Sequence record: KC801932
Length of the DNA stretch: 64,000 nt
Source: Escherichia phage Lw1
Strand: one strand, 5' to 3'
A program made the position numbers and the translations under genes. The notes beneath the pieces are model-generated. The model searched no databases and had not been told where the DNA came from. It saw only the letters and a list, made by a program, of their open reading frames with translations. Positions 4,982 to 53,679 of this stretch are shown piece after piece (the first letter of the stretch is position 1; every line of letters starts with the position of its first letter).

Positions 4982-6679
4982 ATGATTAACGAAAAAATGA
5001 CACACCGCGAAGCGTTGGAAATCTTAGGGGCCACGGGTACTGAATCCAAAGCTGAAATGTCCAAACTCTTCAAACGTGCTTCTCTGCGTAATCACCCCGA
5101 TCGTGGTGGTAGCACAGAACTCATGCAAAAAATTAACCAGGCATATGACGTAGTAACGAGAACAAACAGTTCTGGTGAAACTATGATGGATATGCGAGCG
5201 CGTCACGCAGCGAATAAAAAAGCGTGGGAAGAAAAACTGGATGCGTATTTTGTTGTTGCTAAGAACTATTTCAGCACGAAATTTAACGCACAGGAATTCG
5301 CTGAATACTTCACCAAATACACCGGACAGCCGACGACCTTCACACAGGAAGTCAAGAAAGATACAATTTCCGTATCTGCTGTGTTCCGTTTCACTTCTGG
5401 TGATGCTCACTTTGATTTCGCTTTCTACTGCAAGCCAGAAGAAGGTAAAGGTTTGATGTCTCCTGATGCAAGCGCATTGGGTAGTGTTTCTGTCAATACT
5501 CTGGTACTGGTTGGAACCAAAAAACATAAAATGGCAAGCCGTGAATATCAATGGGGCAAAAACCCAGATAAGATCACACCGGAAAGCCTGTTCCCGTCCA
5601 AGAAACTTGCATCAATTTTCAGCCCGACACAAAAGAACCTCAAGTTCAAACGTGCTGACTATATGACTTCTTTCCGCAAGCACTTAGACGCAGAAATCAG
5701 CGGCAATGATATCTATGTTCCTGTAGGCGACCTGAAAGTTCGTTTCTATCGTCATGTAATGATGCGTAAAGGTGCGTATGTGTTTAGTGCGGTATACGAC
5801 CCAGCGGTAAGTAAATTCCGTTCTGCTGCAAACCTTCGCGGAACTATGTTCGAAGACGAAGACGGCGCATGTTTGGATATGATTATCGACACTTTCAAAG
5901 AAATGCAGAAAGCAAAACCGAACGTTAACGGTATTGTCAGTATCATTGACAAGATGAACGCAGAATTCGCAGCGGGACACCGTTCAGCATCTTTCGTCAA
6001 ACGTATGGCACAGCAAGCAGCAGCACCGAAGCCGGAAGAAAAGCCGAAACGCACTGTTAACCGTATCAGCAAAGATGATTATTTCAACGCATTGAAACAA
6101 GCGGGTGCAACATTCCGTAGCAACTACGGTGAGTTTGATAACGGCGCTGGATTGACTTTCCACTTCAAGCGCGAGATCAGCAACCGTAAAGGCTTCTGGA
6201 GTTTCAGCAGTTTTAATTTCATGCACTCCGGTCAACGTCATGTTGAATGGTTGAAAGATATCGACATTGACGAAGACAGCAAAGGTGCAAGTATCGGTCT
6301 GATGGTTGATACTCTGAAACAGTTGCGTGGTGTTGCTGATTGGTATACTGCAAGAAAGATCCTGGAAGCGATGCGCGATAACTTCAAAGCTGGTAAGTTC
6401 TCCGCACCACACGTTAAGAAAGAAGCCGAACAGAAACGCACTGAGGCGCAAGCTAAGGACGAGTTAGGCGCACAGCCTACCAAACCCCATGAAGCGAAGA
6501 AAGAAGCCCCAGCAGTTGATAAGGCTCACGAGGCGCAAATGGCGAAAGAGAAAGCACAGATGAATGCAACTATTCGTTCTATGCTCTCCGCTCTGGTTAA
6601 AGCTGGACGCAAAGACACGCCGGAAGAAATTAAAAAAGCAGTTGATGAAGCAATCGCTCTTTGGCGCTTGAAACACTAA
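4982..6679 (+). CDS. J-domain (DnaJ-like) protein, 565 aa, with Lys/Glu/Ala-rich C-terminal tail
   Basis: N-terminal J domain with HPD motif (LRNHPDRGGS...INQAYDVV); start placed at ATG 4982 with GAGGAA RBS rather than the upstream GTG of the ORF track. Confidence 0.7.
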   Translation: MINEKMTHREALEILGATGTESKAEMSKLFKRASLRNHPDRGGSTELMQKINQAYDVVTRTNSSGETMMDMRARHAANKKAWEEKLDAYFVVAKNYFSTKFNAQEFAEYFTKYTGQPTTFTQEVKKDTISVSAVFRFTSGDAHFDFAFYCKPEEGKGLMSPDASALGSVSVNTLVLVGTKKHKMASREYQWGKNPDKITPESLFPSKKLASIFSPTQKNLKFKRADYMTSFRKHLDAEISGNDIYVPVGDLKVRFYRHVMMRKGAYVFSAVYDPAVSKFRSAANLRGTMFEDEDGACLDMIIDTFKEMQKAKPNVNGIVSIIDKMNAEFAAGHRSASFVKRMAQQAAAPKPEEKPKRTVNRISKDDYFNALKQAGATFRSNYGEFDNGAGLTFHFKREISNRKGFWSFSSFNFMHSGQRHVEWLKDIDIDEDSKGASIGLMVDTLKQLRGVADWYTARKILEAMRDNFKAGKFSAPHVKKEAEQKRTEAQAKDELGAQPTKPHEAKKEAPAVDKAHEAQMAKEKAQMNATIRSMLSALVKAGRKDTPEEIKKAVDEAIALWRLKH

Positions 6680-12494: not shown

Positions 12495-12777
12495 TTGTCG
12501 CGTCGTAAACAAGTATAAAGGTAACTGGGATGTCGATATTCAAAGAGGTACGAAGTTCGGCAATCCCTTTTACAAGGGAACACGGGGTGAAAACATTCTT
12601 AACTTCATCCCGTATTTCCAAAACTTGATTCGAACTGGCGTGATCACAATCGACGAACTGAAAGAACTGGACGGGAAGCGGTTAGGCTGTAGTTGCAAAC
12701 CCTTACCGTGTCACGGTGATTATATTGCTCACTGCGTCAATGTGTTGACCGGAAAGGTGAATAAGTTGGATATATAA
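12466..12777 (+). CDS. DUF4326-family protein (approx 103 aa)
   Basis: GNPF and C.CKPLPCHGD signature typical of DUF4326; ATG 12466 overlaps nrdB 3' end. Confidence 0.6.
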   Translation: MQNGDKNTLDCRVVNKYKGNWDVDIQRGTKFGNPFYKGTRGENILNFIPYFQNLIRTGVITIDELKELDGKRLGCSCKPLPCHGDYIAHCVNVLTGKVNKLDI

Positions 12778-13175
12778 TGGACGATGTAACGTTTGGTGTA
12801 ATATTTCCTTTGCGTCTGGGTTCAGACAAAAGGATAGATCGGAGTTTTGTTAAATGTGGTGAATTCCGGCATTGTGTATATTTTATTGAAATCGACGGTC
12901 GGATAGTGTATGTTGGCAAGTGTCGTGATTTGTGGAAGCGGTTAGACACATACCGCAATTCGAAATACTGGCGGGAAGCAAACCCCAGTAACATTTTGAA
13001 AACCGCACGTCTGGAAATGGCAATCAAAAAAGGTAAACGTGTAAATCTTATCGTGACAACACACGACGAAAGCACGTATCACGATTTTGAAATCAACATG
13101 ATCCGAAAAATTAATCCTGAATGGAACAAACAGCACTATGACAAATCTAACCAAAAATCAGAAAACCCTCTTTGA
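12777..13175 (+). CDS. denA: GIY-YIG-like endonuclease II (DenA-like)
   Basis: 132 aa; VYFIEIDGRIVYVGK ... NPEWN resembles T4 DenA layout; position nrdB-denA-rnlA as in T4. Confidence 0.5.
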   Translation: MDDVTFGVIFPLRLGSDKRIDRSFVKCGEFRHCVYFIEIDGRIVYVGKCRDLWKRLDTYRNSKYWREANPSNILKTARLEMAIKKGKRVNLIVTTHDESTYHDFEINMIRKINPEWNKQHYDKSNQKSENPL

Positions 13176-20706: not shown

Positions 20707-21147
20707 GTGGACATTGGTTCGGGTAGTCAATATCCATCATGTGCATTGAGCAACTTCGCCCCGCATCCGTTCACTTTTGACGGGGTAGAATGTGCATCAA
20801 TGGAGGGTTTTTTACAAAGCCTGAAATACAGCAACCCAGATATGCAAGCGCATGTGTGTACTCTGGTAGGTAAAGCCGCCAAGTTCAAAGGCAAGAAAAA
20901 GAAATGGTATCGCGATCAGACCCTATACTGGAAAGGTACACCGATTCACCGTGAGTCCGAAGCGTATCAGATTCTTATCGAAAACGCGTACAATGCTCTT
21001 TTCCTGAATGACGGGTTTCGCCGTGCGTTGAAAGCAACCGGAAAAAGCACCTTGACTCATTCAATGGGAAAGAATAAGATGAATGAAACAGTGCTCACCG
21101 AACGTGAGTTTGTTCGAAATTTAACCCGACTAAGGGATCTGCTATGA
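20707..21147 (+). CDS. NADAR-domain protein (YbiA-like, ADP-ribose/N-glycosidase family)
   Basis: LSNF.PHPF..DG....S.EGFLQSLK signature of NADAR/DUF1768; probable GTG start at 20707 preceded by GGGGG. Confidence 0.6.
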   Translation: MDIGSGSQYPSCALSNFAPHPFTFDGVECASMEGFLQSLKYSNPDMQAHVCTLVGKAAKFKGKKKKWYRDQTLYWKGTPIHRESEAYQILIENAYNALFLNDGFRRALKATGKSTLTHSMGKNKMNETVLTEREFVRNLTRLRDLL

Positions 21148-22050: not shown

Positions 22051-22664
22051 AACCAGTTATTCTTACCGATATTGACGGGATCGCCGTAAAATGGCAAAGC
22101 GGCCTCCCGTTCTTTTTGTCTAAACACAATATGCCTACTGATATTGCTCTGGACATGGTCACCGATGAAAGATTTCGTGATATGACCGAAATATTCGGGT
22201 GTGATCACCAACTGGCTAAAATCCTGATGGAAGAATATAACAACAGTTCGTTTATTCGCTATCTAAGCGCGTATGACGATGCGTTAGTTGTGATCAACCG
22301 TCTGAAAGCCAAATATGATTTCGTCGCTGTCACGGCGCTGGGAACCACTCCTACGGCAAGTCTGAACCGTATTGCAAACCTGAACACATTGTTCCCGTCT
22401 GCATTCAAAGAAGTGATGGTCGTCGGACATGGTGAAACAAAAACACATCGTTACCTGGAAGCAAAAGCCAAATACGGATCGCGGTTGGTTTGCTTTGTTG
22501 ATGACCTTGCGGTAAACTTAAACGAGTGTCATAACGTCATCAGTCAGTTGCCGTTATTTCACATGTTGCGTGGTGAACGTGAACAACCAAATGTTCCGCA
22601 CAGTATCGTAAAATCATGGTTTGAAATTGAAGAGAAATTAGATGATCTTATCAATATTGAATGA
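22047..22664 (+). CDS. HAD-superfamily hydrolase (possible 5'(3')-deoxyribonucleotidase)
   Basis: N-terminal DxDG motif (ILTDIDGIA) and later FVDD; TTG start with AGGT RBS. Confidence 0.45.
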   Translation: MKPVILTDIDGIAVKWQSGLPFFLSKHNMPTDIALDMVTDERFRDMTEIFGCDHQLAKILMEEYNNSSFIRYLSAYDDALVVINRLKAKYDFVAVTALGTTPTASLNRIANLNTLFPSAFKEVMVVGHGETKTHRYLEAKAKYGSRLVCFVDDLAVNLNECHNVISQLPLFHMLRGEREQPNVPHSIVKSWFEIEEKLDDLINIE

Positions 22665-24165
22665 ACTTGCATCGACTCTGAAAACCTCAGAGAAGGAAGC
22701 AATTTTAAAACGTAATGCAAACAACCTATTGTTGAAAGAGATTTTCCGAATTACGTACACAAAACAGATTATGTTCTATGTGCGTAAGTTTCCCCAGGTG
22801 GACGGCAAACCAGGAACAACCCCGCTATCAAATGCAATCGCGGACCTGATGTCCGATTTAGCATCGCGGAAGTATACAGGTAATGCAGCCCGCGATCGCC
22901 TGATGGATATTGTGTCATCAGTAAACGAGAACGATCGCGAAGTGTTGCGCCGTATCATTAACCGCGATCTTGAATGTGGTGCGGGTACAACTCTGCCAAA
23001 CCGCGTATGGAAGAAACTTATTCCAGAACAGCCTCAATGCCTCGCTACGCCGTTTAGTGAAAAAGCCTTAAAACGTATTCGCTTCCCTGCTTACTCTCAG
23101 CTTAAAGCCGATGGTGCGCGTTGTATGTCGGATCTGTTAGAAGACCAGATTCGCAAAGCAACCCGCGCGGGAAATGAGTATACAGGTTTGGTTGATCTGG
23201 ATAAGGATTTGAAAAAGATCCGCGAATATCTGGGTTATGATGTTGTGCTGGATGGAGAATTGATTTATGTCCCTGGTGGAAAATCCGTTGAAGTTCCTGT
23301 GTCTCCTGTTACGTTTAGCCTTGCTGGGTTTATGGGCGATGACGATGATTCTGTTACTGACTTTGTGGCTGATGTTAGGCGGGAAGCCACCGAGGGAGAA
23401 AAACAGGAAGAGGCGAAACGCGAAGAAGGAAACGGAATCGTAAACAAATCCCTGAAAGGCACTATCAGCGACGAAGAACAACAGAACATCGTTTATGTTG
23501 TCTGGGACATCATACCGTATGAAGTTTATTATGGTGATGCTCCGAGTGTTCAGCCTTACAAAGATCGCTTGTCTATCCTTGATGGTGTTATCGCTGGCAC
23601 TGGTGTAACATCGGTTCAGTTGATTCCTTCTATCCTGGTGCAAACCATCGCGGAAGCAAAACAGGATTACAACAATTACCGCAATGACGGTAAAGAGGGT
23701 TCAATCCTGAAAAACGTTGATTTCGTCTGGAAGGATTCACGCGTTGCGGATCAGGTTAAGTTGAAGAACAAAACCCCGATCGAACTACGAATCATCGACG
23801 TATACGCGCACACCAAAGAACCTCATAAGGTCGGCGGGTTTGTTGTTGAGGACTTATCAGGAGAAGCCAGGACGAACACAGGTTCCGGTTTAACTGATAC
23901 AGACTACCGTTACGATGAAGACGGTGTTACCCGCGTGTATATCCCGTTAGACGAACGTGGAGAACTGGATCGCGAGTATATCATGACGAACAAAGATGAC
24001 TATATTGGCGCTATCGTCGAAATGGAAGTTGACGGACTCCAGAAGTCTAAAACGCGTAAGAAGGGCGAACCTGAATACAGTTTCTTCTTGCCAATCATCA
24101 AGAAGATTCGACGCGATAAGACGGAACCTGATGATATTCATGTGGTTTTTGCCGATCTGTTTTAA
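22642..24165 (+). CDS. 30: ATP-dependent DNA ligase
   Basis: 507 aa; N-terminus matches remembered T4 gp30 (MIL.ILNE.AS, LTY, LECGA, IPEQPQ); KADGAR adenylation motif. Confidence 0.9.
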   Translation: MILSILNELASTLKTSEKEAILKRNANNLLLKEIFRITYTKQIMFYVRKFPQVDGKPGTTPLSNAIADLMSDLASRKYTGNAARDRLMDIVSSVNENDREVLRRIINRDLECGAGTTLPNRVWKKLIPEQPQCLATPFSEKALKRIRFPAYSQLKADGARCMSDLLEDQIRKATRAGNEYTGLVDLDKDLKKIREYLGYDVVLDGELIYVPGGKSVEVPVSPVTFSLAGFMGDDDDSVTDFVADVRREATEGEKQEEAKREEGNGIVNKSLKGTISDEEQQNIVYVVWDIIPYEVYYGDAPSVQPYKDRLSILDGVIAGTGVTSVQLIPSILVQTIAEAKQDYNNYRNDGKEGSILKNVDFVWKDSRVADQVKLKNKTPIELRIIDVYAHTKEPHKVGGFVVEDLSGEARTNTGSGLTDTDYRYDEDGVTRVYIPLDERGELDREYIMTNKDDYIGAIVEMEVDGLQKSKTRKKGEPEYSFFLPIIKKIRRDKTEPDDIHVVFADLF

Positions 24166-39981: not shown

Positions 39982-40236
39982 TTAAAAAAGATGCGTTAAA
40001 TGTCCTGCATTGCTGGGGTATTCGACGTAATCACCACGGAAGATGTTCAAATCTTTATCAAATTTAAACCCATGTCCTTGAACATCTTCATGACGAGATA
40101 CATAAGATACTCCATACTTTTCAAGGTCTTCCATATACATTTCGGTGATTCTCTTCGCTTTATCCAATCCGCGTCCCTCAAATCGAGAACGTCGATAATT
40201 CGCAAGAAGAAACGCATATAATTCTTCGTATGTCAT
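39982..40236 (-). CDS. Hypothetical protein (84 aa)
   Basis: ORF ATGA-coupled into methyltransferase gene. Confidence 0.4.
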   Translation of the reverse strand: MTYEELYAFLLANYRRSRFEGRGLDKAKRITEMYMEDLEKYGVSYVSRHEDVQGHGFKFDKDLNIFRGDYVEYPSNAGHLTHLF

Positions 40237-41144
40237 TTCAATACCTTTCTGATTTGTTTCGCTATGGCTTCGATCACGGGTATTGAAACTGAATTTCCCG
40301 CTTGACGATATGCCTGTTTTTTACTATCCGGTATGATAAATGAATCAGGGAATCCCTGCAAACGAAAACACTCACGGGGAGTAAGTCTTCTGGGGTTCTT
40401 TCCTTCCTGCAACACCAGACATTGAACGCCGTCCTTGTAATACTGCTGGGTTATCGTCCCAGTGTGCGTAGAATCGCTTGTGACGGCCTGATAACCAAAC
40501 CCCTTACCATTCGCCTTGTTTCGTTCCTTACGCTCTCTAAAGCCTTTCCACGCGTTATCTGATAGGGTGTATGAATCATCAGCATCTTCGAGGATATCGC
40601 CCACTCTCGTAGGGGTACGCGGAGGAACAGGAAACGAAAAGAATACATCATCCAGGAAGCAAACAATAAACACACGTTCACGTCTTTGTGGTAGTCCGAA
40701 ATCTTTTGTATTCAGTCGTTGATAGAATACGTTATATCCTTCGGCCTCCAGAAGCCCGTAAATCGTTTTAAACGTCTTCCCCTTGTCATGGGTTAGTAGT
40801 TCAGGCACGTTCTCAAAGAACAGCACACGGGGCTTTTTAGCGCGTATGATGCGGAGTATTTCAAAGAACACAGTACCGCGAACATCATCGAACCCCAGTT
40901 TTAATCCTGCTTTACTGAATGCCTGACACGGGAACCCAGCCAACAGGATATCGTGATCAGGTACTTCGGTTTCTTTTATCTGGAACAGATCTCCCTGTAG
41001 GTTATCATTGCCCCAGTTTTCGATATATGTTTGCTGTGCGAACTTGTCGATTTCAGACGTTAAAAGGCATTCGACACCGCCGAACGCCTTATCAAATCCT
41101 AATCGAACCCCGCCCACACCAGCACAGAGGTCAATTATTTTCAT
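40233..41144 (-). CDS. DNA (cytosine-5)-methyltransferase
   Basis: Canonical C5-MTase motifs: I DLCAGVGG, IV GFPCQAFS, VI ENV, VIII QRRERVF, C-terminal X. Confidence 0.85.
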   Translation of the reverse strand: MKIIDLCAGVGGVRLGFDKAFGGVECLLTSEIDKFAQQTYIENWGNDNLQGDLFQIKETEVPDHDILLAGFPCQAFSKAGLKLGFDDVRGTVFFEILRIIRAKKPRVLFFENVPELLTHDKGKTFKTIYGLLEAEGYNVFYQRLNTKDFGLPQRRERVFIVCFLDDVFFSFPVPPRTPTRVGDILEDADDSYTLSDNAWKGFRERKERNKANGKGFGYQAVTSDSTHTGTITQQYYKDGVQCLVLQEGKNPRRLTPRECFRLQGFPDSFIIPDSKKQAYRQAGNSVSIPVIEAIAKQIRKVLK

Positions 41145-41685: not shown

Positions 41686-41921
41686 TCCGTTTCGATACCG
41701 TATTTGTATGCGTCAATCCCCAGAGGGGTGATCAACAGACACATATCAGTATTTTCGTTTGGCGACTTAAACGCCGCAGTTGCGTAACCTTTTTCAATCA
41801 GGGCATTACGCCCTGATTTACTGGGTACGTCATCGAAATCCAATGTTAACACCTGTGATGCATATCTGTAAAGTTTATACAGCACGTCAATTTCAGCACC
41901 GGATAATTTCGGGAATGTCAT
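41676..41921 (-). CDS. Hypothetical protein (81 aa)
   Basis: Coupled ORF. Confidence 0.35.
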   Translation of the reverse strand: MTFPKLSGAEIDVLYKLYRYASQVLTLDFDDVPSKSGRNALIEKGYATAAFKSPNENTDMCLLITPLGIDAYKYGIETEWH

Positions 41922-42916
41922 TTGTAGTACCCCACAACGTGATCGCGATAAACGCGTTCGATAAAGTCGTTCCAGAACTCGCGATCAACCTCTTTCGGAT
42001 AATTAGAGACTGCTGCAAGGCGTTCGACTTCACCCATGATTTCTTCCAGCTTTTCCTGGACAAAAGTGAAAGGTTTCGTTCCGGCTTTAACTTCTTTTAA
42101 AAGCTGGCTCTCTTCCAGAGGATATACGATATCACCATGTTTGTAAATGCTGATAAGCTGTAAGCCTCCGCGCAATGCGTGAGAAAGTGCTTTCCAGTCG
42201 ATCCCGTTGTTGGCTTCTGCCTGTCTTGCTCGTTCACCATATTCGTCCCAGAGTTTATACACTGACTTTTTCATTTCAGCTACGGTGATCGTAGACTGGA
42301 ATTTGCGCCCCAGCACTTCATAGAAGTCCTGACAACCGGATTTCAGGGTTTTGTCTGTAGTGAATCGACAGAACTCATTGGTCGGGAATGTGTGAGAGAC
42401 TTCACCAACTTTGATGTGATGTGTTGCGTCACCCAGATTAGACGGCATACGAACAATGCGGCTATTTGGTGTATCCTGCAACACATCGTATACTTCACGC
42501 AGTGCAGCCAGGCGAGAACCTTTAACGCCATACTTCGCCGCTTGCTTACGAACATAACCAAACAGGCCAGTTAGTTCCGTAGTGTAGAAACGTGAACGGT
42601 TAGCGCGGATATACTGCCAGATTTCGGAGTTAGCGATCATCTTACTATCATCAGCATGAAGCATATCGAGCGCTACGGTATCACCATCACACGCAAGGCT
42701 AATGAACTTAGGCAGACTATACAACTGACGGTCGATGTCGTCTACGGTGTTCTTAGAGCTTTTATCGCCCGTGCTCGTGTCGATAGTCTTCGGGGCTTTA
42801 CCCAGTAAGATATCGCGTGGATGCGGGAGAAAGATCCCTTTATAATCTTTGTCGCTTGTCGGGGTGTTCAGTCCATACAGGTGAGAACCGAACACAGTTT
42901 CCATTACAATTTTCAT
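41918..42916 (-). CDS. Nucleotidyltransferase-fold protein (Pol-beta superfamily), 332 aa
   Basis: N-terminal GS...SDxD signature (FGSHLYGLNTPTSDKDYKGIF). Confidence 0.5.
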   Translation of the reverse strand: MKIVMETVFGSHLYGLNTPTSDKDYKGIFLPHPRDILLGKAPKTIDTSTGDKSSKNTVDDIDRQLYSLPKFISLACDGDTVALDMLHADDSKMIANSEIWQYIRANRSRFYTTELTGLFGYVRKQAAKYGVKGSRLAALREVYDVLQDTPNSRIVRMPSNLGDATHHIKVGEVSHTFPTNEFCRFTTDKTLKSGCQDFYEVLGRKFQSTITVAEMKKSVYKLWDEYGERARQAEANNGIDWKALSHALRGGLQLISIYKHGDIVYPLEESQLLKEVKAGTKPFTFVQEKLEEIMGEVERLAAVSNYPKEVDREFWNDFIERVYRDHVVGYYK

Positions 42917-43311
42917 AGTTCAATACCTAATGTTTTTGCGATATCTTTCAGTTGAAATGTAGCGATTTCGGGAACAACAACATAATGAGTACCGAACTCT
43001 TTTCGTATTTTTTCGCACAGTTCAGTACGATACTGAATTTCATTGTATACAGTTTCGCTGCGATACATATAAAATCCACCCCATCCACCACCAGAACCCG
43101 AAGTCAACCCGCACTTACGATCGACTTTCTCAACGTTCCAGTCTTTCGCGTCAGCATCTTTGTTGGTGGATGCGTACAAGTATTGACGAGCAACCTTGAT
43201 TACGTGAAACACGCGAGGATTTTCGACTCTGCGATTATTGTAATTTCTTGTACCCGGATCGTAAATGGTATCACCCACTTTCACATCAGTTAAATCTTTC
43301 AAATTATTCAT
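42913..43311 (-). CDS. Hypothetical protein (132 aa)
   Basis: ATGA-coupled ORF; Gly-rich loop GSGGGWGG. Confidence 0.4.
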   Translation of the reverse strand: MNNLKDLTDVKVGDTIYDPGTRNYNNRRVENPRVFHVIKVARQYLYASTNKDADAKDWNVEKVDRKCGLTSGSGGGWGGFYMYRSETVYNEIQYRTELCEKIRKEFGTHYVVVPEIATFQLKDIAKTLGIEL

Positions 43312-44750: not shown

Positions 44751-45809
44751 TTAAAGTCCAGTAAACGCAACGATAATCTGATAGTGGTCATCGAAGAACT
44801 CACCACGTTTCTGTTTGACTTCGTGCATAGGCATCCAGAACGCCTCTGCTGCATCGTCAGCGCCTCCCATAATACGGGGCAGACTTCCATCATTGTTAGG
44901 CTCTAACTTGATGTATTGCGCTACAGTCGGTTTTGAGAAGTGTACGGAACGCTTCGGATGGTCGAACAGCATAGAATTGCGGATTGAACCACGGATAACC
45001 TTTTCAGGAACCTTGATCCGAACTTCTTCGAGCAATTCGCGGATCGCACAATCCAGGAACGTTTCATTCGCGTTTTTGTGTCCACCTGGCAGGGCTAATG
45101 CGCCTTTACCTGGTGCAAACTTACGACGAATCACTAACACATGGTTATTACAAACAACCACGCTATCACCAGTACAACAGTTTAACGCGTCGGGGTATGG
45201 GTACGCTTTGAACTTCTCCAGTTCATCTTCCCATTTCTCGAACTCGTAGTACAAGCGCCAGAACGTATCGGTCATCATCCATCCGTTAAGAGAACCCACG
45301 ACAGCAGCAGGAACATAACGGGCGATCTTCTCGTCCCATCCATTTTTATGTAAAAAGATGGTTGGACGCAGGTCGGTAGCAGATAAATCTTTGCCGTCAA
45401 CCTTAACCGGATCAACCGGAACATGAGTCCATCCGAACGCTTTAAGCCAGTACGAATCAGCATCTTTTTCGTAACCGTAGATCGCGATGTTATCGCCTTT
45501 GGTTTCGTCGATTGCTGTACGAACAGAGGTTTTCCATTTTTCTTCATTGTAAAGGTAATCTGGAATCGGCTTGAATTGCACACGGGCTACATCTTCGTAT
45601 TTGAACTCAGACAGTAACCAGCTTGTAATCATACGTTCCCGTTCGGTTGCCGTCAGCGGGTTTAAAACGTTAGGGTAAGCATAAGCTGAACCCAGGAGGA
45701 TATAAACGGTCTTCGACTCTTCCAGTGCTTTACGCACCATTGCCGCGTGACCATTATGGAAGGGTTGGAATCTGCCAATTACGACAGCTTTATCAAATTT
45801 GTATTTCAT
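44751..45809 (-). CDS. natV: Bifunctional NMN adenylyltransferase / Nudix hydrolase (NadM-Nudix, NatV-like)
   Basis: N-terminal GRFQPFHNGH nucleotidyltransferase motif; C-terminal Nudix box GGHKNANETFLDCAIRELLEEV; start at ATG 45809 with GGAG RBS. Confidence 0.8.
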   Translation of the reverse strand: MKYKFDKAVVIGRFQPFHNGHAAMVRKALEESKTVYILLGSAYAYPNVLNPLTATERERMITSWLLSEFKYEDVARVQFKPIPDYLYNEEKWKTSVRTAIDETKGDNIAIYGYEKDADSYWLKAFGWTHVPVDPVKVDGKDLSATDLRPTIFLHKNGWDEKIARYVPAAVVGSLNGWMMTDTFWRLYYEFEKWEDELEKFKAYPYPDALNCCTGDSVVVCNNHVLVIRRKFAPGKGALALPGGHKNANETFLDCAIRELLEEVRIKVPEKVIRGSIRNSMLFDHPKRSVHFSKPTVAQYIKLEPNNDGSLPRIMGGADDAAEAFWMPMHEVKQKRGEFFDDHYQIIVAFTGL

Positions 45810-45956
45810 AACGTGCTCCACGTTTAAAGGGTAATCATAAAACAGACGCAATAATCAATACACCAAGCAAACCGCCAATAAAGCCGAAGAATAGCGAAAT
45901 GAAGATAGATAAGATGATCTGTTTTATGTTCATTATAGTATTCTCGTTCTAAGAAT

Positions 45957-47712: not shown

Positions 47713-47737
47713 CAAAAAAGGGGCAATAAGCCCCCTT
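47713..47737 (-). terminator. Rho-independent terminator (aagggggcttattgcccctttttt on minus strand)
   Basis: GC stem followed by T-run downstream of minus-strand tk operon. Confidence 0.5.
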
Positions 47738-48183: not shown

Positions 48184-48768
48184 TTAACAGTTCACACCGA
48201 CTTTATCAAGCACCTTTTCATGATAATGCTTGCGACACAACGAAACGTATTTGTCTTCGGCTCCGATTTCGACTTGCGCCCCTTCTGTTACGAAGTTGCC
48301 TTGTGCGTCGATACGGGCGACCGTAGTTGCTTTACGTCCACAGTGACACATTCCCCTCAGTTCGCGGATCTCGTCAGCCCAGGCAAGCAACCAGTAAGAA
48401 CCCTCGAACAGATTCAACTGAAAGTCGGTACGCAACCCGTAGCACATCACAGGAATTTCGAGTTCATCGACAATACGACACAGATCGAAAACGTTTTTCT
48501 TCGAGAGGAATTGCGCTTCATCAACGAAGATACAAGAGATATTATTCCGGCGCAGGATATCCCAGAACAGATCCATTCTGGGTGCAATCAGTTCACAATT
48601 TGCACTTAGCCCAACACGAGAAGCAACAGTGTGTGATGTGCGAGTATCAAGCATAGGCTTGTAGATCACAACGTTCATACCGCGTTCTTTGTAGTTGTAT
48701 GCGTCTGTTAACAGACGCGCACTTTTGCCAGCGTTCATTGATGCGTAGTGATAATACAGTTTAGCCAT
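48184..48768 (-). CDS. tk: Thymidine kinase
   Basis: 194 aa; P-loop MNAGKSA, FVDEAQF, C-terminal zinc ribbon CHCG ... SLCRKH; close to remembered T4 Tk. Confidence 0.9.
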   Translation of the reverse strand: MAKLYYHYASMNAGKSARLLTDAYNYKERGMNVVIYKPMLDTRTSHTVASRVGLSANCELIAPRMDLFWDILRRNNISCIFVDEAQFLSKKNVFDLCRIVDELEIPVMCYGLRTDFQLNLFEGSYWLLAWADEIRELRGMCHCGRKATTVARIDAQGNFVTEGAQVEIGAEDKYVSLCRKHYHEKVLDKVGVNC

Positions 48769-48973
48769 GTTTAGCCCGTTCCTCTGCTACTGCATCAAAC
48801 ACCGCGTCTTCAACTTCTTTTTCGACGAATGAAATGATTTCATCAACCATGCGATCGATGTATAATTGGTTGACATTGCGCGAATCTGGATCATCTTCTG
48901 CTGCATAATCCTGGTAAAGTTCTCCCAGTTCTTTCAGCTTGTGTTTTAACACTTTTTCTTCTTGAACTCTCAT
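48761..48973 (-). CDS. Hypothetical acidic protein (70 aa)
   Basis: Coupled ORF upstream of tk. Confidence 0.35.
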   Translation of the reverse strand: MRVQEEKVLKHKLKELGELYQDYAAEDDPDSRNVNQLYIDRMVDEIISFVEKEVEDAVFDAVAEERAKHG

Positions 48974-49142
48974 TCTCTCGCCTCTTTACGTTCTTTATCG
49001 ATTAAGTCATCAACGAAACTGACAATATCATCCCACCAGTCCAATGCTTCCTGTGATGCTTTCGCGTCACCTTCGAGGAAACGATCGCGGGACTTTACGA
49101 AGTTCTCTACTTTCTTATAGAGTTTTTCTTTATCTGCGTTGA

Positions 49143-49619
49143 TCATAATTCCACCTTACGCATATCAATAGACGGATCGAAGTGTACCACGATGGTCGGA
49201 TAGTCGCCAGTAGAATCGTTTATAATGTCTTTAATGCGTTCCCAGTCGCCTCCAGCAAGCCCCGCACCAATAAGAGGGTAACGTTCAGGACACGCCCTGG
49301 CGCTTTCCACGGCGCTTTCAAAGCATGAACGGATTGCGTCGTAATCCACTTGTGGGCCAGCACCCCAGAACTTAAACTGGGTATAGGCGTTGAACACCAT
49401 ACGACCATCCTCTTGAACATAAACAGAGTTACGGCCCAGTTTTTTCTGGTTGCCTTTAAGCGTCATTGCATCCATTCGAAACGCGCCAGGGATTTTCTTC
49501 TTTACTTCTTTTGCAATCCCCGCACCCATATTACAGAAGCAGTTACACCCATGAATCAGGTGTACGTCACGACGAAGGAACAACTCAACAGCGTTCCCTT
49601 TAATCTCTTTGATAATCAT
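49143..49619 (-). CDS. Macro domain protein (ADP-ribose binding / hydrolase)
   Basis: Macro-like glycine-rich motifs (GCNCFCNMGAGIA, IGAGLAGGDW). Confidence 0.7.
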   Translation of the reverse strand: MIIKEIKGNAVELFLRRDVHLIHGCNCFCNMGAGIAKEVKKKIPGAFRMDAMTLKGNQKKLGRNSVYVQEDGRMVFNAYTQFKFWGAGPQVDYDAIRSCFESAVESARACPERYPLIGAGLAGGDWERIKDIINDSTGDYPTIVVHFDPSIDMRKVEL

Positions 49620-49850
49620 TCTTTATTACCCATTTTATAGCCGATCCCAATGACCAGCCCCATCAAAATAACCGCGCTTATCAAAAGCGCGAATTGTAGA
49701 CCTATGCTCATTTAAATTGATCGTCCCATAGTTGCCACGCTTCCAGTTCATCATTGTATTCAGGGAGTGAACGTTCCCCTGGTTTCTTGACGTAATACCA
49801 GATAATGATAGCAACGGCGATAACAGTACCGTAAAAGATAATTAATCCCA

Positions 49851-50177
49851 TTAGTATAATCCTATTCCGGCGTTATATTCATCCACCAGATAGGTACGCA
49901 GTTTTTCGCAGCGTTCCTTATTCGGTGCGCGGGTACAGAGTTTCATCATTGGTTCAGACTGCAAGAACTCGCGTTGTTTAGCCAGCTTTTGACGTTTGTA
50001 CAAGTGCGCGTTTTCTTCGCCCCACACATAAGCCGCGTCCAGTTGTTCCGCGATCACCTGGTAACATACCACAGTATCTTTAATGTCTCGATGGTCGCAG
50101 AGTTCAGACAGACGGTTGTCATCAACAGCGAACACGGAACCAGAAACCAAAGTCAGCAACAGCGCAAGTTTTTTCAT
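49851..50177 (-). CDS. Hypothetical periplasmic protein (108 aa)
   Basis: Signal peptide MKKLALLLTLVSGSVFA. Confidence 0.4.
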   Translation of the reverse strand: MKKLALLLTLVSGSVFAVDDNRLSELCDHRDIKDTVVCYQVIAEQLDAAYVWGEENAHLYKRQKLAKQREFLQSEPMMKLCTRAPNKERCEKLRTYLVDEYNAGIGLY

Positions 50178-50179
50178 TA

Positions 50180-50581
50180 TTACTCTCCAAGTACGTAAAC
50201 AAAGCGGTCTTCGATTGAATCGTTAACACATTCGTAAATTCCCCCAGCGCGTACAGCTTTACGAATGCCGGATTTTACGATTTCCATGATCTCTTTGTTG
50301 CTTCCCCATACATTCAAATTGAAGTATAGCGCACATTCGATTGGATAGTCTTCTACGTTGCGATACACATCATCACTTTCACATACAAACAGTATGCGCT
50401 TTTCTTCTCCATATTCGAAGTAAATGCTAAACGCGTTCATACTGTTTTTATCAACAGTGATTTGAGTGATTTTAACGTTCGGTTTGCTTTTGAGTTCAGC
50501 AAGAACACTCTGAATAATAGATAACGCATTCAGTTTAATAAGTCCGCATTTTCCTACAATAACACGATGTGATGTACTCAT
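50180..50581 (-). CDS. Hypothetical protein (133 aa)
   Basis: ORF downstream of hairpin-promoter at 50610. Confidence 0.4.
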   Translation of the reverse strand: MSTSHRVIVGKCGLIKLNALSIIQSVLAELKSKPNVKITQITVDKNSMNAFSIYFEYGEEKRILFVCESDDVYRNVEDYPIECALYFNLNVWGSNKEIMEIVKSGIRKAVRAGGIYECVNDSIEDRFVYVLGE

Positions 50582-50609: not shown

Positions 50610-50640
50610 ATAATAAAAAAGCCCCTGCAAAAATGCAAGG
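50610..50640 (-). promoter_or_regulatory. Terminator hairpin doubling as promoter spacer (TTGCAT-17-TATTAT)
   Basis: Minus strand: -35 50633-50638, -10 50610-50615; spacer forms hairpin gcccttgca/tgcaggggc followed by T-run. Confidence 0.4.
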
Positions 50641-50648
50641 GCTTTCGA

Positions 50649-52335: not shown

Positions 52336-53679
52336 TTAAAAGTTGTCTTCGACGAATGCTGCCAGGCGTCCACGATACACAGTATTCAGGATTATGTGAC
52401 TAGCATGGTCATATTCTTTAAGTTTTTCAACAGCATAGACAAAACCGTTGTTTACAGCAGTGTTTCGCGGGTTGTCAATCTGCTTAATATTCCCGCATAG
52501 TATCAGAAGTGTATTCTCTCCGCAACGGGAAATAATGGATTTTATTTCATGGTTGCTCAAGTTTTGACATTCGTCAACAATCAGCACTGAACCTTTACCA
52601 GGATCTGGGTGTCCGATAGAACGCCCACGGAAGTAATACAGGCTAGGGAACTGCACCACGCCTTTTTCCAGAAGTCCTTCAACGTACTTGTCAACTTCCG
52701 GTTGATCCTTAAACAGAATATTCAGGCTCGTGATACACGGTTCAACCGATGGTCGGAGTTTTTCACCCAGAGTACCAGGCAAGAACCCTATTTCACCAGA
52801 CAGCGGACTATCTGCCTTGACATACATCAGGTTTGCGAAGTGTCCCGCGTTAACCATGTGCATTGCGCCAGCAACCGCCAGCATTGTTTTACCCGAACCC
52901 GCCGCACCCATGATGGTCACAACGTCATTGTTCTTGTCCAGGATCGCATCAACGAATGACGCTTGCAGAGCATCGCGGGGCTGAATTGTTTTCATCAGCT
53001 TACGCTTTAACGCTTGTTCGTGCTTAATAGGCAACACTTCAAGCTGAAACTCTCCAGCAGCCACCACACGCCCTACAATCTCACCATCCGATAGAATGTA
53101 TTGGTTAGGGTAGAAATCCGCGTCAGGAAGCGATGAATACGTTATAACGGCAACAGGCCCGACATACTCCATGACTTCGACAGTTTCCCAGAACAGCGGC
53201 AGGTCGATATAACCTGAATACAACACATCACTATCTTTCAGCGAGTCATCGCCAGTGTATTGAAGAACCGGACAACCTTTAGACATCGCGATCAACAGCA
53301 TGTTAATGTCACGAGTCACCAGCGTTGCGCCCTGTTGAATACAGGTTGCAATGATCCGCGCATCCTGTTTATCGAGAGGGAACTCTTCGGGGCCGACATA
53401 ATCGACAATTTTGAGTGTTACACTTTCCGGTACTGCTGGGTTTGTTAAGTTTAACGAAACCCCTGTTTGGGTAATTGCTTCATAATTTTGTCCCAGGATT
53501 GCTTTGGACAATAGCCGGATCGCCAGTCGTGCTTCATGAGCGGTTCGCTCTTTGCTTTTCAGGTGATCCAGTTCTTCCATCGTTGCAGCAGTGATAATAA
53601 TTTCAGTATCAGGTTCGATGAAAGAGTAAACTGAATAGGGGTTCGAGATCAAAACGTTTGTATCGAGAACATATTTCAT
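52336..53679 (-). CDS. phoH: PIN-PhoH fusion protein (PhoH2/YlaK-like ATPase)
   Basis: N-terminal PIN (MKYVLDTNVLIS), C-terminal PhoH P-loop GAAGSGKT and DEAQN-like box (VDECQN). Confidence 0.8.
   Translation of the reverse strand: MKYVLDTNVLISNPYSVYSFIEPDTEIIITAATMEELDHLKSKERTAHEARLAIRLLSKAILGQNYEAITQTGVSLNLTNPAVPESVTLKIVDYVGPEEFPLDKQDARIIATCIQQGATLVTRDINMLLIAMSKGCPVLQYTGDDSLKDSDVLYSGYIDLPLFWETVEVMEYVGPVAVITYSSLPDADFYPNQYILSDGEIVGRVVAAGEFQLEVLPIKHEQALKRKLMKTIQPRDALQASFVDAILDKNNDVVTIMGAAGSGKTMLAVAGAMHMVNAGHFANLMYVKADSPLSGEIGFLPGTLGEKLRPSVEPCITSLNILFKDQPEVDKYVEGLLEKGVVQFPSLYYFRGRSIGHPDPGKGSVLIVDECQNLSNHEIKSIISRCGENTLLILCGNIKQIDNPRNTAVNNGFVYAVEKLKEYDHASHIILNTVYRGRLAAFVEDNF

Follow-up and report, generated by a model that had tools for sequence, protein, structure and literature searches.

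The 64,000-nucleotide stretch of the Escherichia phage Lw1 genome analyzed here (sequence record KC801932; hereafter, the window) carries on its minus strand, at 49143..49619, a gene for a stand-alone macrodomain of 158 amino acids (aa), Lw1 gp142. It is the ortholog of T4 tk.4/adfM, and its product probably counters the host DarTG2 system as an ADP-ribosylglycohydrolase. The interval is an exact 158-codon open reading frame (ORF) running from ATG to TGA, and its product is identical to Lw1_gp142 (100% identity). An earlier note, made from the sequence letters, had placed a macro-domain gene at precisely these positions, leaving its strand unstated; it had based this on glycine-rich macro motifs and proposed a search with hidden Markov models. 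Both motifs are present (N30-MGAGIA-36 and I117-GAGLAGGDW-126), the search returns a macro profile above its gathering cut-off, and the interpretation is supported by Pfam, PHROG, and the predicted fold, to which orthology with T4 tk.4 can now be added.

The Pfam Macro profile (PF01661) aligns with gp142 over positions 1-117 of its 118 (25.8 bits, E=1.1e-5), a narrow margin over the gathering cut-off of 22 bits; the homolog from phage GuL6, which keeps intact a strand that is shortened in Lw1, scores 34.3 bits. The match to the PHROG 335 profile is far stronger (E=1.3e-53). A collection of 5.8 billion proteins holds 1253 homologs at E<=1e-5, most of them with precomputed Macro matches, and tblastn found a homolog in 2727 of 50,697 phage records. 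The sole NCBIfam match of gp142 is antitoxin_DarG (NF048014), and the sole PADLOC match is DarG. Both are confined to the macrodomain part: the NCBIfam match reaches 26.1 bits against a cut-off of 250 and covers model positions 15-149 of 338.

An alignment of 63 sequences shows H23, G24, C25, N26, M31, G32, G34, N77, Y79, and Q81 to be invariant, together with P115, I117, G118, G120, G124, D125, and W126. According to the alignments, the first glycine-rich, phosphate-binding loop (H23-G-C-N26-C-F-C-N-M-G-A-G-I-A36, with MGAGIA at residues 31-36) is encoded at 49512..49553 and the second (I117-GAGLAGGDW-126, with IGAGLAGG at residues 117-124) at 49242..49271, both on the minus strand. An AlphaFold model built with the 63-sequence alignment has a predicted local distance difference test score (pLDDT) of 91 and a predicted template modeling score of 0.88, and predicts the three-layer alpha/beta/alpha macro fold; a single-sequence model (pLDDT 35.6) was rejected as unusable. 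The structures matching this model best are Bacteroides BT1257 (score 18.0), the Mycobacterium tuberculosis DarG macrodomain (15.9), human TARG1 (15.8), yeast Poa1p (14.9), and Thermosipho DarTG (14.7), with viral, MacroD, and PARP macrodomains at 12.6 or less. Foldseek recovered the same structures plus SCO6735, and phmmer against Protein Data Bank (PDB) sequences agreed. With BT1257, DarG, TARG1, and SCO6735 as its nearest structures, gp142 is therefore a member of the ALC1/TARG1/DarG-like macrodomain class.

Within phages, the reference point is T4 Tk.4. BLASTP aligns residues 1-151 of gp142 with residues 1-155 of Tk.4 at 35% identity (E=3e-27), and both proteins fall into PHROG 335 by annotation and score. 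In T4, the genes run vs > tk.4 > tk.3 > tk.2 > tk.1 > tk, and both its sequence and its place between vs and tk mark the Lw1 gene as the ortholog of tk.4. The T4 gene is annotated 'phosphatase; contains A1pp motif', and tk.4 is also the name given to the counterparts in RB43 and Aeromonas phage 31. In sequence, gp142 is closer to bacterial and metagenomic homologs (45-48% identity) than to T4 Tk.4. A transposon screen of T4 (HIDEN-SEQ) found tk.4 to be the single significant gene on a DarTG2-expressing host, and its clean deletion sensitizes T4 to DarTG2; the gene was renamed adfM, for anti-DarT factor Macrodomain, and removal of ADP-ribose from DNA by its product was proposed by the authors without an assay (bioRxiv 10.1101/2025.11.20.689424).

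Gene order between vs and tk

The macro gene belongs to a chain of touching or overlapping minus-strand genes, which in transcription order comprises a 133-aa ORF (50180-50581), vs, ORFs of 47 and 31 aa, macro, ORFs of 58 and 70 aa, and tk. The vs homolog (49851..50177; phrog_1256, 1.4e-22), whose family is annotated as valyl-tRNA synthetase modifier, and the thymidine kinase gene tk (48184..48768; Pfam TK, 9e-49) are the upstream and downstream synteny anchors. The 58-aa ORF (48970..49146; phrog_19420, 6.6e-34) is a variable cassette, and the 70-aa ORF (48761..48973; phrog_12899, 1.8e-44) follows it, again through an ATGA overlap. Read directly, the sequence bears out the ATGA coupling that had been described for the macro gene and places it at both ends of the gene: the stop of the 31-aa ORF overlaps the macro ATG, and the macro stop is coupled in the same manner to the 58-aa ORF. 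Further upstream, the stop of the 47-aa ORF overlaps the 31-aa ATG, and the vs-like gene ends in TAATG on the 47-aa start. Because the macro start lacks a convincing Shine-Dalgarno sequence, its translation probably proceeds by termination-reinitiation from the 31-aa ORF. A scan for sigma-70-like promoters returned three sites, compared with 9.8 in shuffled sequences, and none upstream of the gene string. The gene string, taken from the 133-aa ORF through a 130-aa ORF after tk, is flanked by two strong terminator-like hairpins with T-runs, one at 50617-50646 (minus; 13 pairs) and the other at 47717-47737 (minus; 8 pairs), an arrangement that suggests a single transcription unit of ~2.9 kb.

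Between vs and macro, the earlier note had reported a chain of tiny hydrophobic ORFs at 49620-49850. They are hydrophobic and real, and there are exactly two of them. The 47-aa ORF (49708..49851, minus; phrog_10683, 1.1e-35) encodes MGLIIFYGTVIAVAIIIWYYVKKPGERSLPEYNDELEAWQLWDDQFK, with an N-terminal transmembrane segment and an acidic tail; the 31-aa ORF (49616..49711, minus; phrog_16377, 2.8e-6) encodes the single-pass hydrophobic product MSIGLQFALLISAVILMGLVIGIGYKMGNKE. Each contains one strongly hydrophobic segment of 19 residues, with Kyte-Doolittle means of 2.56 and 2.31. The former is full length in all 60 Pseudotevenvirus records matching the locus and the latter is intact in 15 phage records, in both cases at 77-100% identity. 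Inside the 31-aa ORF lies a terminator-like hairpin with a T-run (49692-49672, minus), and annotations of the site vary: CfP1 has a terminator at the equivalent position; RB16, RB43, and GuL6 leave the ORF unannotated; Miller and RB43-GVA list it as a gene. We rejected the view that this ORF is noncoding spacer DNA harboring a terminator, because RB43 and GuL6 have lost the hairpin but kept the ORF, in which 10 of the 19 nucleotide changes fall on third positions and all seven residue changes are conservative. Judged by this pattern of conservation, both ORFs are very likely genuine genes for small membrane proteins. In the lineage of Lw1, RB16, and CfP1, the hairpin could attenuate transcription ahead of the macro gene.

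Lw1 is a 'pseudo-T-even' phage of the RB43 group; it came from a BL21(DE3) culture that had lysed, and 454 technology was used to sequence it (PMC3861415). Its genome measures 176,227 bp, and the DNA flanking the locus is 97-99% identical to RB16 and ~88-90% identical to the Citrobacter phages CfP1, IME-CF2, and Miller. Gene orders from vs to tk, derived from blastn break-points and annotations, differ among these relatives. Lw1 has vs > 47 > 31 > macro > 58 > 70 > tk; RB16, vs > 47 > 31 > 70 > tk; Miller, vs > 47 > 31 > 58 > 70 > tk; CfP1 and IME-CF2, vs > 47 > 31 > macro > 70 > tk; and GuL6 and RB43-GVA, vs > 47 > 31 > macro > 61 > 60 > tk. The 58-aa ORF is thus shared with Miller and missing from CfP1, IME-CF2, and RB16. 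RB16 lacks 639 bp that are present in Lw1, comprising the 58-aa and macro genes, and in Lw1 this segment is bracketed by two copies of a 7-nt direct repeat, AGAATGA (48970..48976 and 49616..49622, minus). Across 48761-50177, every gene-content difference among these phages begins and ends at an ATGA stop/start overlap, so that translational coupling is preserved; recombination seems to have occurred at these junctions repeatedly.

We considered an insertion of the macro gene into Lw1 relative to RB16 but rejected it in favor of loss from RB16 and Miller, since the gene occupies this locus in T4, Aeromonas phage 31, RB43, GuL6, CfP1, and IME-CF2 and in most of the genus. From its absence in RB16 and Miller it also follows that the gene is dispensable for growth. 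Broad conservation combined with repeated loss fits a conditionally useful counter-defense gene. In the RB43 record NC_007023.1 (locus 1593-2085), tk.4 is frameshifted within HGCNCF and annotated as ORF148c plus tk.4, and isolate RB43-GVA (HE858210.2, locus 793-1281) has an intact macro gene of 489 nt. The frameshift carries little weight as a sign of decay, given the intact RB43-GVA copy; it may distinguish the two isolates or stem from an early sequencing error.

Active site and the Lw1 strand deletion

Active-site residues were compared in MAFFT alignments of gp142 with T4 Tk.4, two Pseudotevenvirus homologs, bacterial homologs, PhiKZ gp104, SCO6735, BT1257, M. tuberculosis DarG, and TARG1. 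The column that holds the catalytic lysine of TARG1 (Lys84) and DarG (Lys80) contains glutamine in gp142 (Gln81, within 'AYTQ'; codon at 49377..49379, minus), as it does in T4 Tk.4, SCO6735 (Gln85), and BT1257, and the column of TARG1 D125 contains Ala122. The first loop reads H-G-C-N in gp142, like H24-V-C-N27 in SCO6735, with H23 aligned to H24 and N26 to N27; DarG and PhiKZ have T-V-N-C. At the position of K34, a DNA-binding residue of SCO6735, gp142 has Ala33. In a phmmer alignment, K83 of gp142 lies opposite SCO6735 K89, also a DNA-binding lysine, but this placement depends on a gap, and T4 Tk.4 has no lysine there. A catalytic lysine of the DarG type was considered for gp142, phmmer having set the second lysine of M. 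tuberculosis DarG opposite K83; it was discarded because the catalytic column of the MAFFT alignments is occupied by Gln81, and because T4 Tk.4 offers no lysine in the vicinity.

The chemistry available to a glutamine-type site is known from SCO6735, which cleaves thymine-linked ADP-ribose on DNA and protects against DarT; its Q85A variant is inactive on DNA and protein substrates, and a water-mediated mechanism, unlike that of TARG1 or DarG, has been proposed for it (PMC9411070). SCO6735 also hydrolyses ADP-ribose linked to uracil in RNA (PMC13036486) and to glutamate in PARP1 (PMC9411070). By the residues they carry, the T4-like AdfM proteins, gp142 included, can be classed as SCO6735-type, and PhiKZ AdfM as DarG-type. 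With a glutamine-type site, the mechanism of gp142 should thus be modelled on SCO6735, not on DarG.

One feature sets the Lw1 protein apart. At 158 aa, gp142 is shorter than its close relatives (162-163 aa), and DNA alignment with IME-CF2 and CfP1 locates the difference to a 12-nt in-frame deletion with its junction at 49281..49282 (minus; LPIVT to Y114). Where CfP1 and IME-CF2 read CCT AAA CAA TTT CCT ATA GTT ACC CCT (P-K-Q-F-P-I-V-T-P), Lw1 reads CCT GAA CGT TAC CCT (P-E-R-Y-P). The four missing residues, kept in 62 of the 62 other aligned homologs, belong to the beta-strand x-I/L-x-x-P that precedes the IGAGLAGG loop. In the gp142 model, this strand is reduced to four residues (116-119) with pLDDT 80-82. 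The 12-nt gap is probably genuine rather than a sequencing error, since errors of 454 sequencing are homopolymer indels. Pairwise comparison of the macro gene gave dN 0.07 and dS 0.68 against IME-CF2 and dN 0.15 and dS 1.58 against GuL6. With nonsynonymous-to-synonymous rate ratios (dN/dS) of ~0.10 in both cases, which are silent on the period after the deletion, the gene has historically been under purifying selection.

As the deletion occurs in none of the 62 homologs, the activity of the Lw1 allele is uncertain; it may be weakened or dead, and we regard impairment as a minority possibility. A fuller version of this idea, to which we give similarly little credence, is that the deletion crippled the enzyme and that Lw1 is on the way to losing the gene altogether, as RB16 and Miller have done. 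It draws on the uniqueness of the deletion among the 63 sequences, on the disappearance of conserved hydrophobic strand residues with a glutamate now at a buried position, on the shortened strand and locally lower pLDDT of the predicted model, and on repeated loss of the gene in the genus, the one frameshifted RB43 record, and the isolation of Lw1 on BL21(DE3). However, the deletion leaves the frame, every invariant residue, and both ATGA junctions of the gene undisturbed, dN/dS is ~0.1 (though this mostly records history before the deletion), the remainder of the model is confident, and, on our reading of the alignment, the segment that now joins helix and strand is only ~two residues shorter than that of TARG1.

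A putative role against DarTG2 and its alternatives

On balance, we think it probable that gp142 is a stand-alone macrodomain ADP-ribosylglycohydrolase, an AdfM-type orphan antitoxin with SCO6735-like chemistry that counters DarTG2. The gene would be expressed early in infection within the translationally coupled string of small genes from vs to tk. Its product would bind the ADP-ribose that a host DarT2-type toxin puts on thymine in single-stranded phage DNA, cleave the ribose-base bond, and release free ADP-ribose, allowing phage replication to continue; gp142 would in this sense be an 'orphan antitoxin' against DarTG2. At the active site, Gln81 together with His23 and Asn26 would hold the distal ribose and a water molecule in place, with no lysine acting as Schiff base or general base. 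That the gp142 allele is active and shares the substrate of AdfM is what we infer. In vitro, the chimallivirus AdfM, PhiKZ gp104, strips from TNTC motifs the ADP-ribose added by DarT2, and it also rescues DarT2 toxicity (PMC13309987). Features of the phages themselves support a counter-defense role for gp142, namely, the low dN/dS ratios, the presence/absence polymorphism of the macro gene within the genus, and an AdfN homolog in the same genome.

That homolog is one of three ADP-ribose- or NAD-related genes (macro, NADAR, and NatV) that the earlier note had listed, each of which is now backed by a profile or sequence match. T4 gp30.3 is the NADAR enzyme AdfN, which removes the guanine-linked ADP-ribose made by DarTG1 (PMC11825919). 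Its Lw1 counterpart (20707..21147, plus; tblastn 41.7% identity, E=7e-26; Pfam Phage_30_3, 1e-55) lies upstream of the DNA ligase gene (22642-24165), as in T4, and its product would do for guanine-linked ADP-ribose from DarTG1 what gp142 would do for DarTG2. The third gene (44751..45851, minus) encodes a NatV-like bifunctional nicotinamide mononucleotide adenylyltransferase (NMNAT)/Nudix protein (ADP-ribose pyrophosphatase), with Pfam CTP_transf_like and NUDIX matches; among NCBIfam profiles, bifunctional NMNAT/Nudix models match it best (3e-79 for the top one) but fall short of their equivalog cut-offs, and its true start may be an internal ATG.

Several observations weigh against the anti-DarTG2 role. 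Identity to T4 Tk.4 is only 35%; the gene is absent from RB16 and Miller; and gp142 alone lacks the four core-strand residues and carries Glu112 where homologs have a buried Ile/Leu, a change on which AlphaFold confidence provides no test of protein stability. Moreover, Lw1 was isolated on BL21(DE3) (PMC3861415), a host in which no selection for the gene is known, and the T4 evidence is genetic, comes from one preprint, and describes enzymatic removal only as 'likely' (bioRxiv 10.1101/2025.11.20.689424). Lastly, since SCO6735-type enzymes act on uracil-linked ADP-ribose in RNA and glutamate-linked ADP-ribose on protein (PMC9411070, PMC13036486), thymine in DNA is not the sole candidate substrate.

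This last point leads to a rather unlikely alternative, in which gp142 is a broader or different eraser whose substrate is uracil-linked ADP-ribose in RNA, Glu/Asp-linked ADP-ribose on protein, or a mark left by another ADP-ribosyltransferase (ART) toxin or defense system, with anti-DarTG2 activity one facet or absent. SCO6735, which represents the closest characterized active-site type, has such breadth, and the bacterial homologs adjoin partners other than DarT. For instance, the Vibrio rhizosphaerae homolog (locus 5207-6459) lies in an RHS toxin locus, after a gene with a Tox-ART-HYD1 domain; the Undibacterium homolog (locus 5066-6459) overlaps a gene for an ARH-family ADP-ribosylglycohydrolase; and a homolog on a metagenomic contig (locus 3628-6259) overlaps TIR_2 and HipA_2 genes. 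Two others lie in stretches rich in toxin-antitoxin or defense genes, with no obvious partner, and a recognizable DarT was found beside the homolog in none of the five contexts examined. These are settings of ADP-ribose/NAD conflict and support a role in reversing toxic ADP-ribosylation generally; the homologs next to Tox-ART-HYD1, ARH, or TIR_2/HipA_2 genes are possible immunity or defense modules. Set against a different substrate are the specificity of the T4 tk.4 phenotype for DarTG2 and the fact that an alternative substrate has been shown for no Tk.4-family protein. T-even phages bearing tk.4 are reported to remain subject to defense by CmdTAC, an RNA ADP-ribosyltransferase system (PMC11618068).

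It is improbable that gp142 acts on small molecules, as an ADP-ribose-1''-phosphate phosphatase ('A1pp phosphatase') or an O-acetyl-ADP-ribose deacetylase feeding NAD salvage together with NatV. The names phosphatase and deacetylase are transferred annotations rather than tests, the TARG1/DarG/SCO6735 glycohydrolase clade supplies the nearest structures and shares the active-site pattern, the macro gene lies 3.3 kb from the NatV-like gene in a separate gene string, and the T4 phenotype is specific to defense. In Vibrio phages Gary and K354, the macro homolog does stand beside genes for ribose-phosphate pyrophosphokinase and nicotinamide phosphoribosyltransferase and is physically linked to NAD salvage, unlike in the Lw1 window. 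Least probable is a role in reversing the phage's own ADP-ribosylation of host proteins, as a regulator of Alt/ModA/ModB-type transferases, for although T4 encodes three ADP-ribosyltransferases of these types and has no other obvious eraser, a search of the 64-kb window, extending to the site behind DNA ligase that alt occupies in T4, found no Alt homolog, the T4 tk.4 phenotype depends on DarTG2, and Alt and Mod enzymes modify arginine, a linkage that macrodomains of the TARG1/DarG class are not known to act on.

If gp142 has the anti-DarTG2 role favored here, AdfM and gp30.3/AdfN homologs would form a two-enzyme kit against DarTG2 and DarTG1, kept beside a NatV-like NAD-salvage gene. Together with hundreds of T4-like entries named 'hypothetical protein' or 'phosphatase', gp142 becomes readable as an ADP-ribosylglycohydrolase of the Tk.4/AdfM family. 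Pseudotevenvirus also offers a natural comparison set for the anti-DarTG2 role that needs no engineering, with RB16 and Miller as knock-outs, Lw1 as a deletion allele, and CfP1, IME-CF2, GuL6, and RB43-GVA as carriers of intact alleles. The gene is in public databases and the function of its family has already been named; current understanding is unchanged and is extended to one more genus.

Elsewhere in the window, three further minus-strand loci deserve mention. At 52336-53679, a 447-aa fusion joins an N-terminal PIN domain to a PhoH-like ATPase, which in relatives is annotated as PhoH-like only. A gene for an RlaP-family nucleotidyltransferase (RNA repair pathway, Pol-beta-type) at 41918-43311 is followed immediately by a gene for a phage ProQ C-terminal-like domain; the two are a possible RNA-related pair, ~1.4 kb from the NatV-like gene on the same strand. 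At 40233-41144 lies a C-5 cytosine DNA methyltransferase gene (Pfam DNA_methylase, 9e-93), consistent with the reported methylation of Dcm sites in Lw1.

Comparison with known macrodomain systems

T4 Tk.4/AdfM is the closest system in organization. Both proteins are stand-alone macrodomains (~155 aa for Tk.4) encoded at the same vs-tk locus on the early-gene strand, and in T4 as in Lw1 the start of the gene overlaps the upstream gene. The motifs HGCNCF...MG.G, YTQ, and IGAG are shared, including the glutamine in the catalytic-lysine column. The differences are that vs abuts tk.4 in T4 whereas two transmembrane micro-ORFs intervene in Lw1, that the second loop continues as IGKGNW in T4 and as LAGGDW in gp142, and that gp142 carries the 4-residue strand deletion.

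Among proteins of known structure, SCO6735 (PDB 5e3b) and BT1257 (2afc/2fg1) are the best matches to gp142 in both sequence and structure. They share with it the H-x-C-N motif, glutamine in place of the catalytic lysine, and the LAGG-x-W second loop; however, they are only ~28-31% identical to gp142 and are cellular proteins without phage context. Human TARG1 (OARD1/C6orf130) differs at both members of its Lys84/Asp125 dyad, which correspond to Gln81 and Ala122 in gp142.

DarG, as known from Thermus aquaticus, M. tuberculosis, and Thermosipho, has the catalytic Lys80 (FPTKKHW) where gp142 has Gln81, and is a protein of ~340 aa with a C-terminal DarT-binding domain, whereas gp142 is the macrodomain alone. 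No darT gene lies beside the gp142 gene, the flanking ORFs being small phage genes with PHROG matches and no Pfam match above a family cut-off. The description of gp142 as 'a DarG' therefore fails on three features, the lysine, the C-terminal DarT-binding domain, and the partner toxin; the looser label 'works like DarG' may stand, by way of the SCO6735 precedent.

Like gp142, PhiKZ gp104 (AdfM; phiKZ locus 12518-13006; 162 aa) is a stand-alone macrodomain encoded by a phage, and it counters DarTG2. In contrast to gp142, with which it shares 27% identity, it keeps the DarG-type motifs TVNVVGVMGAG and FPTK, the latter with the lysine, and it is imported into the phage nucleus, a compartment that T4-like phages do not have. 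Given this identity and the lysine and glutamine motifs, the PhiKZ and T4-like 'AdfM' groups sit on different branches of the macro clade and probably represent separate acquisitions. A wider picture, which we offer tentatively and think more doubtful than the anti-DarTG2 role itself, is that T4-like phages and chimalliviruses recruited two TARG1/DarG branches for one counter-defense job. The T4-like branch (Tk.4 and gp142) would be a lysine-less, SCO6735-related enzyme that erases base-linked ADP-ribose from DNA and RNA with broad specificity, not a copy of DarG, and would be kin to the bacterial immunity-like proteins found beside ART toxins, ARH hydrolases, and TIR proteins. In Pseudotevenvirus, it would be a cassette gained and lost at ATGA junctions, with the strand-deletion variant of Lw1 either a hypomorph or an enzyme with an altered substrate cleft.

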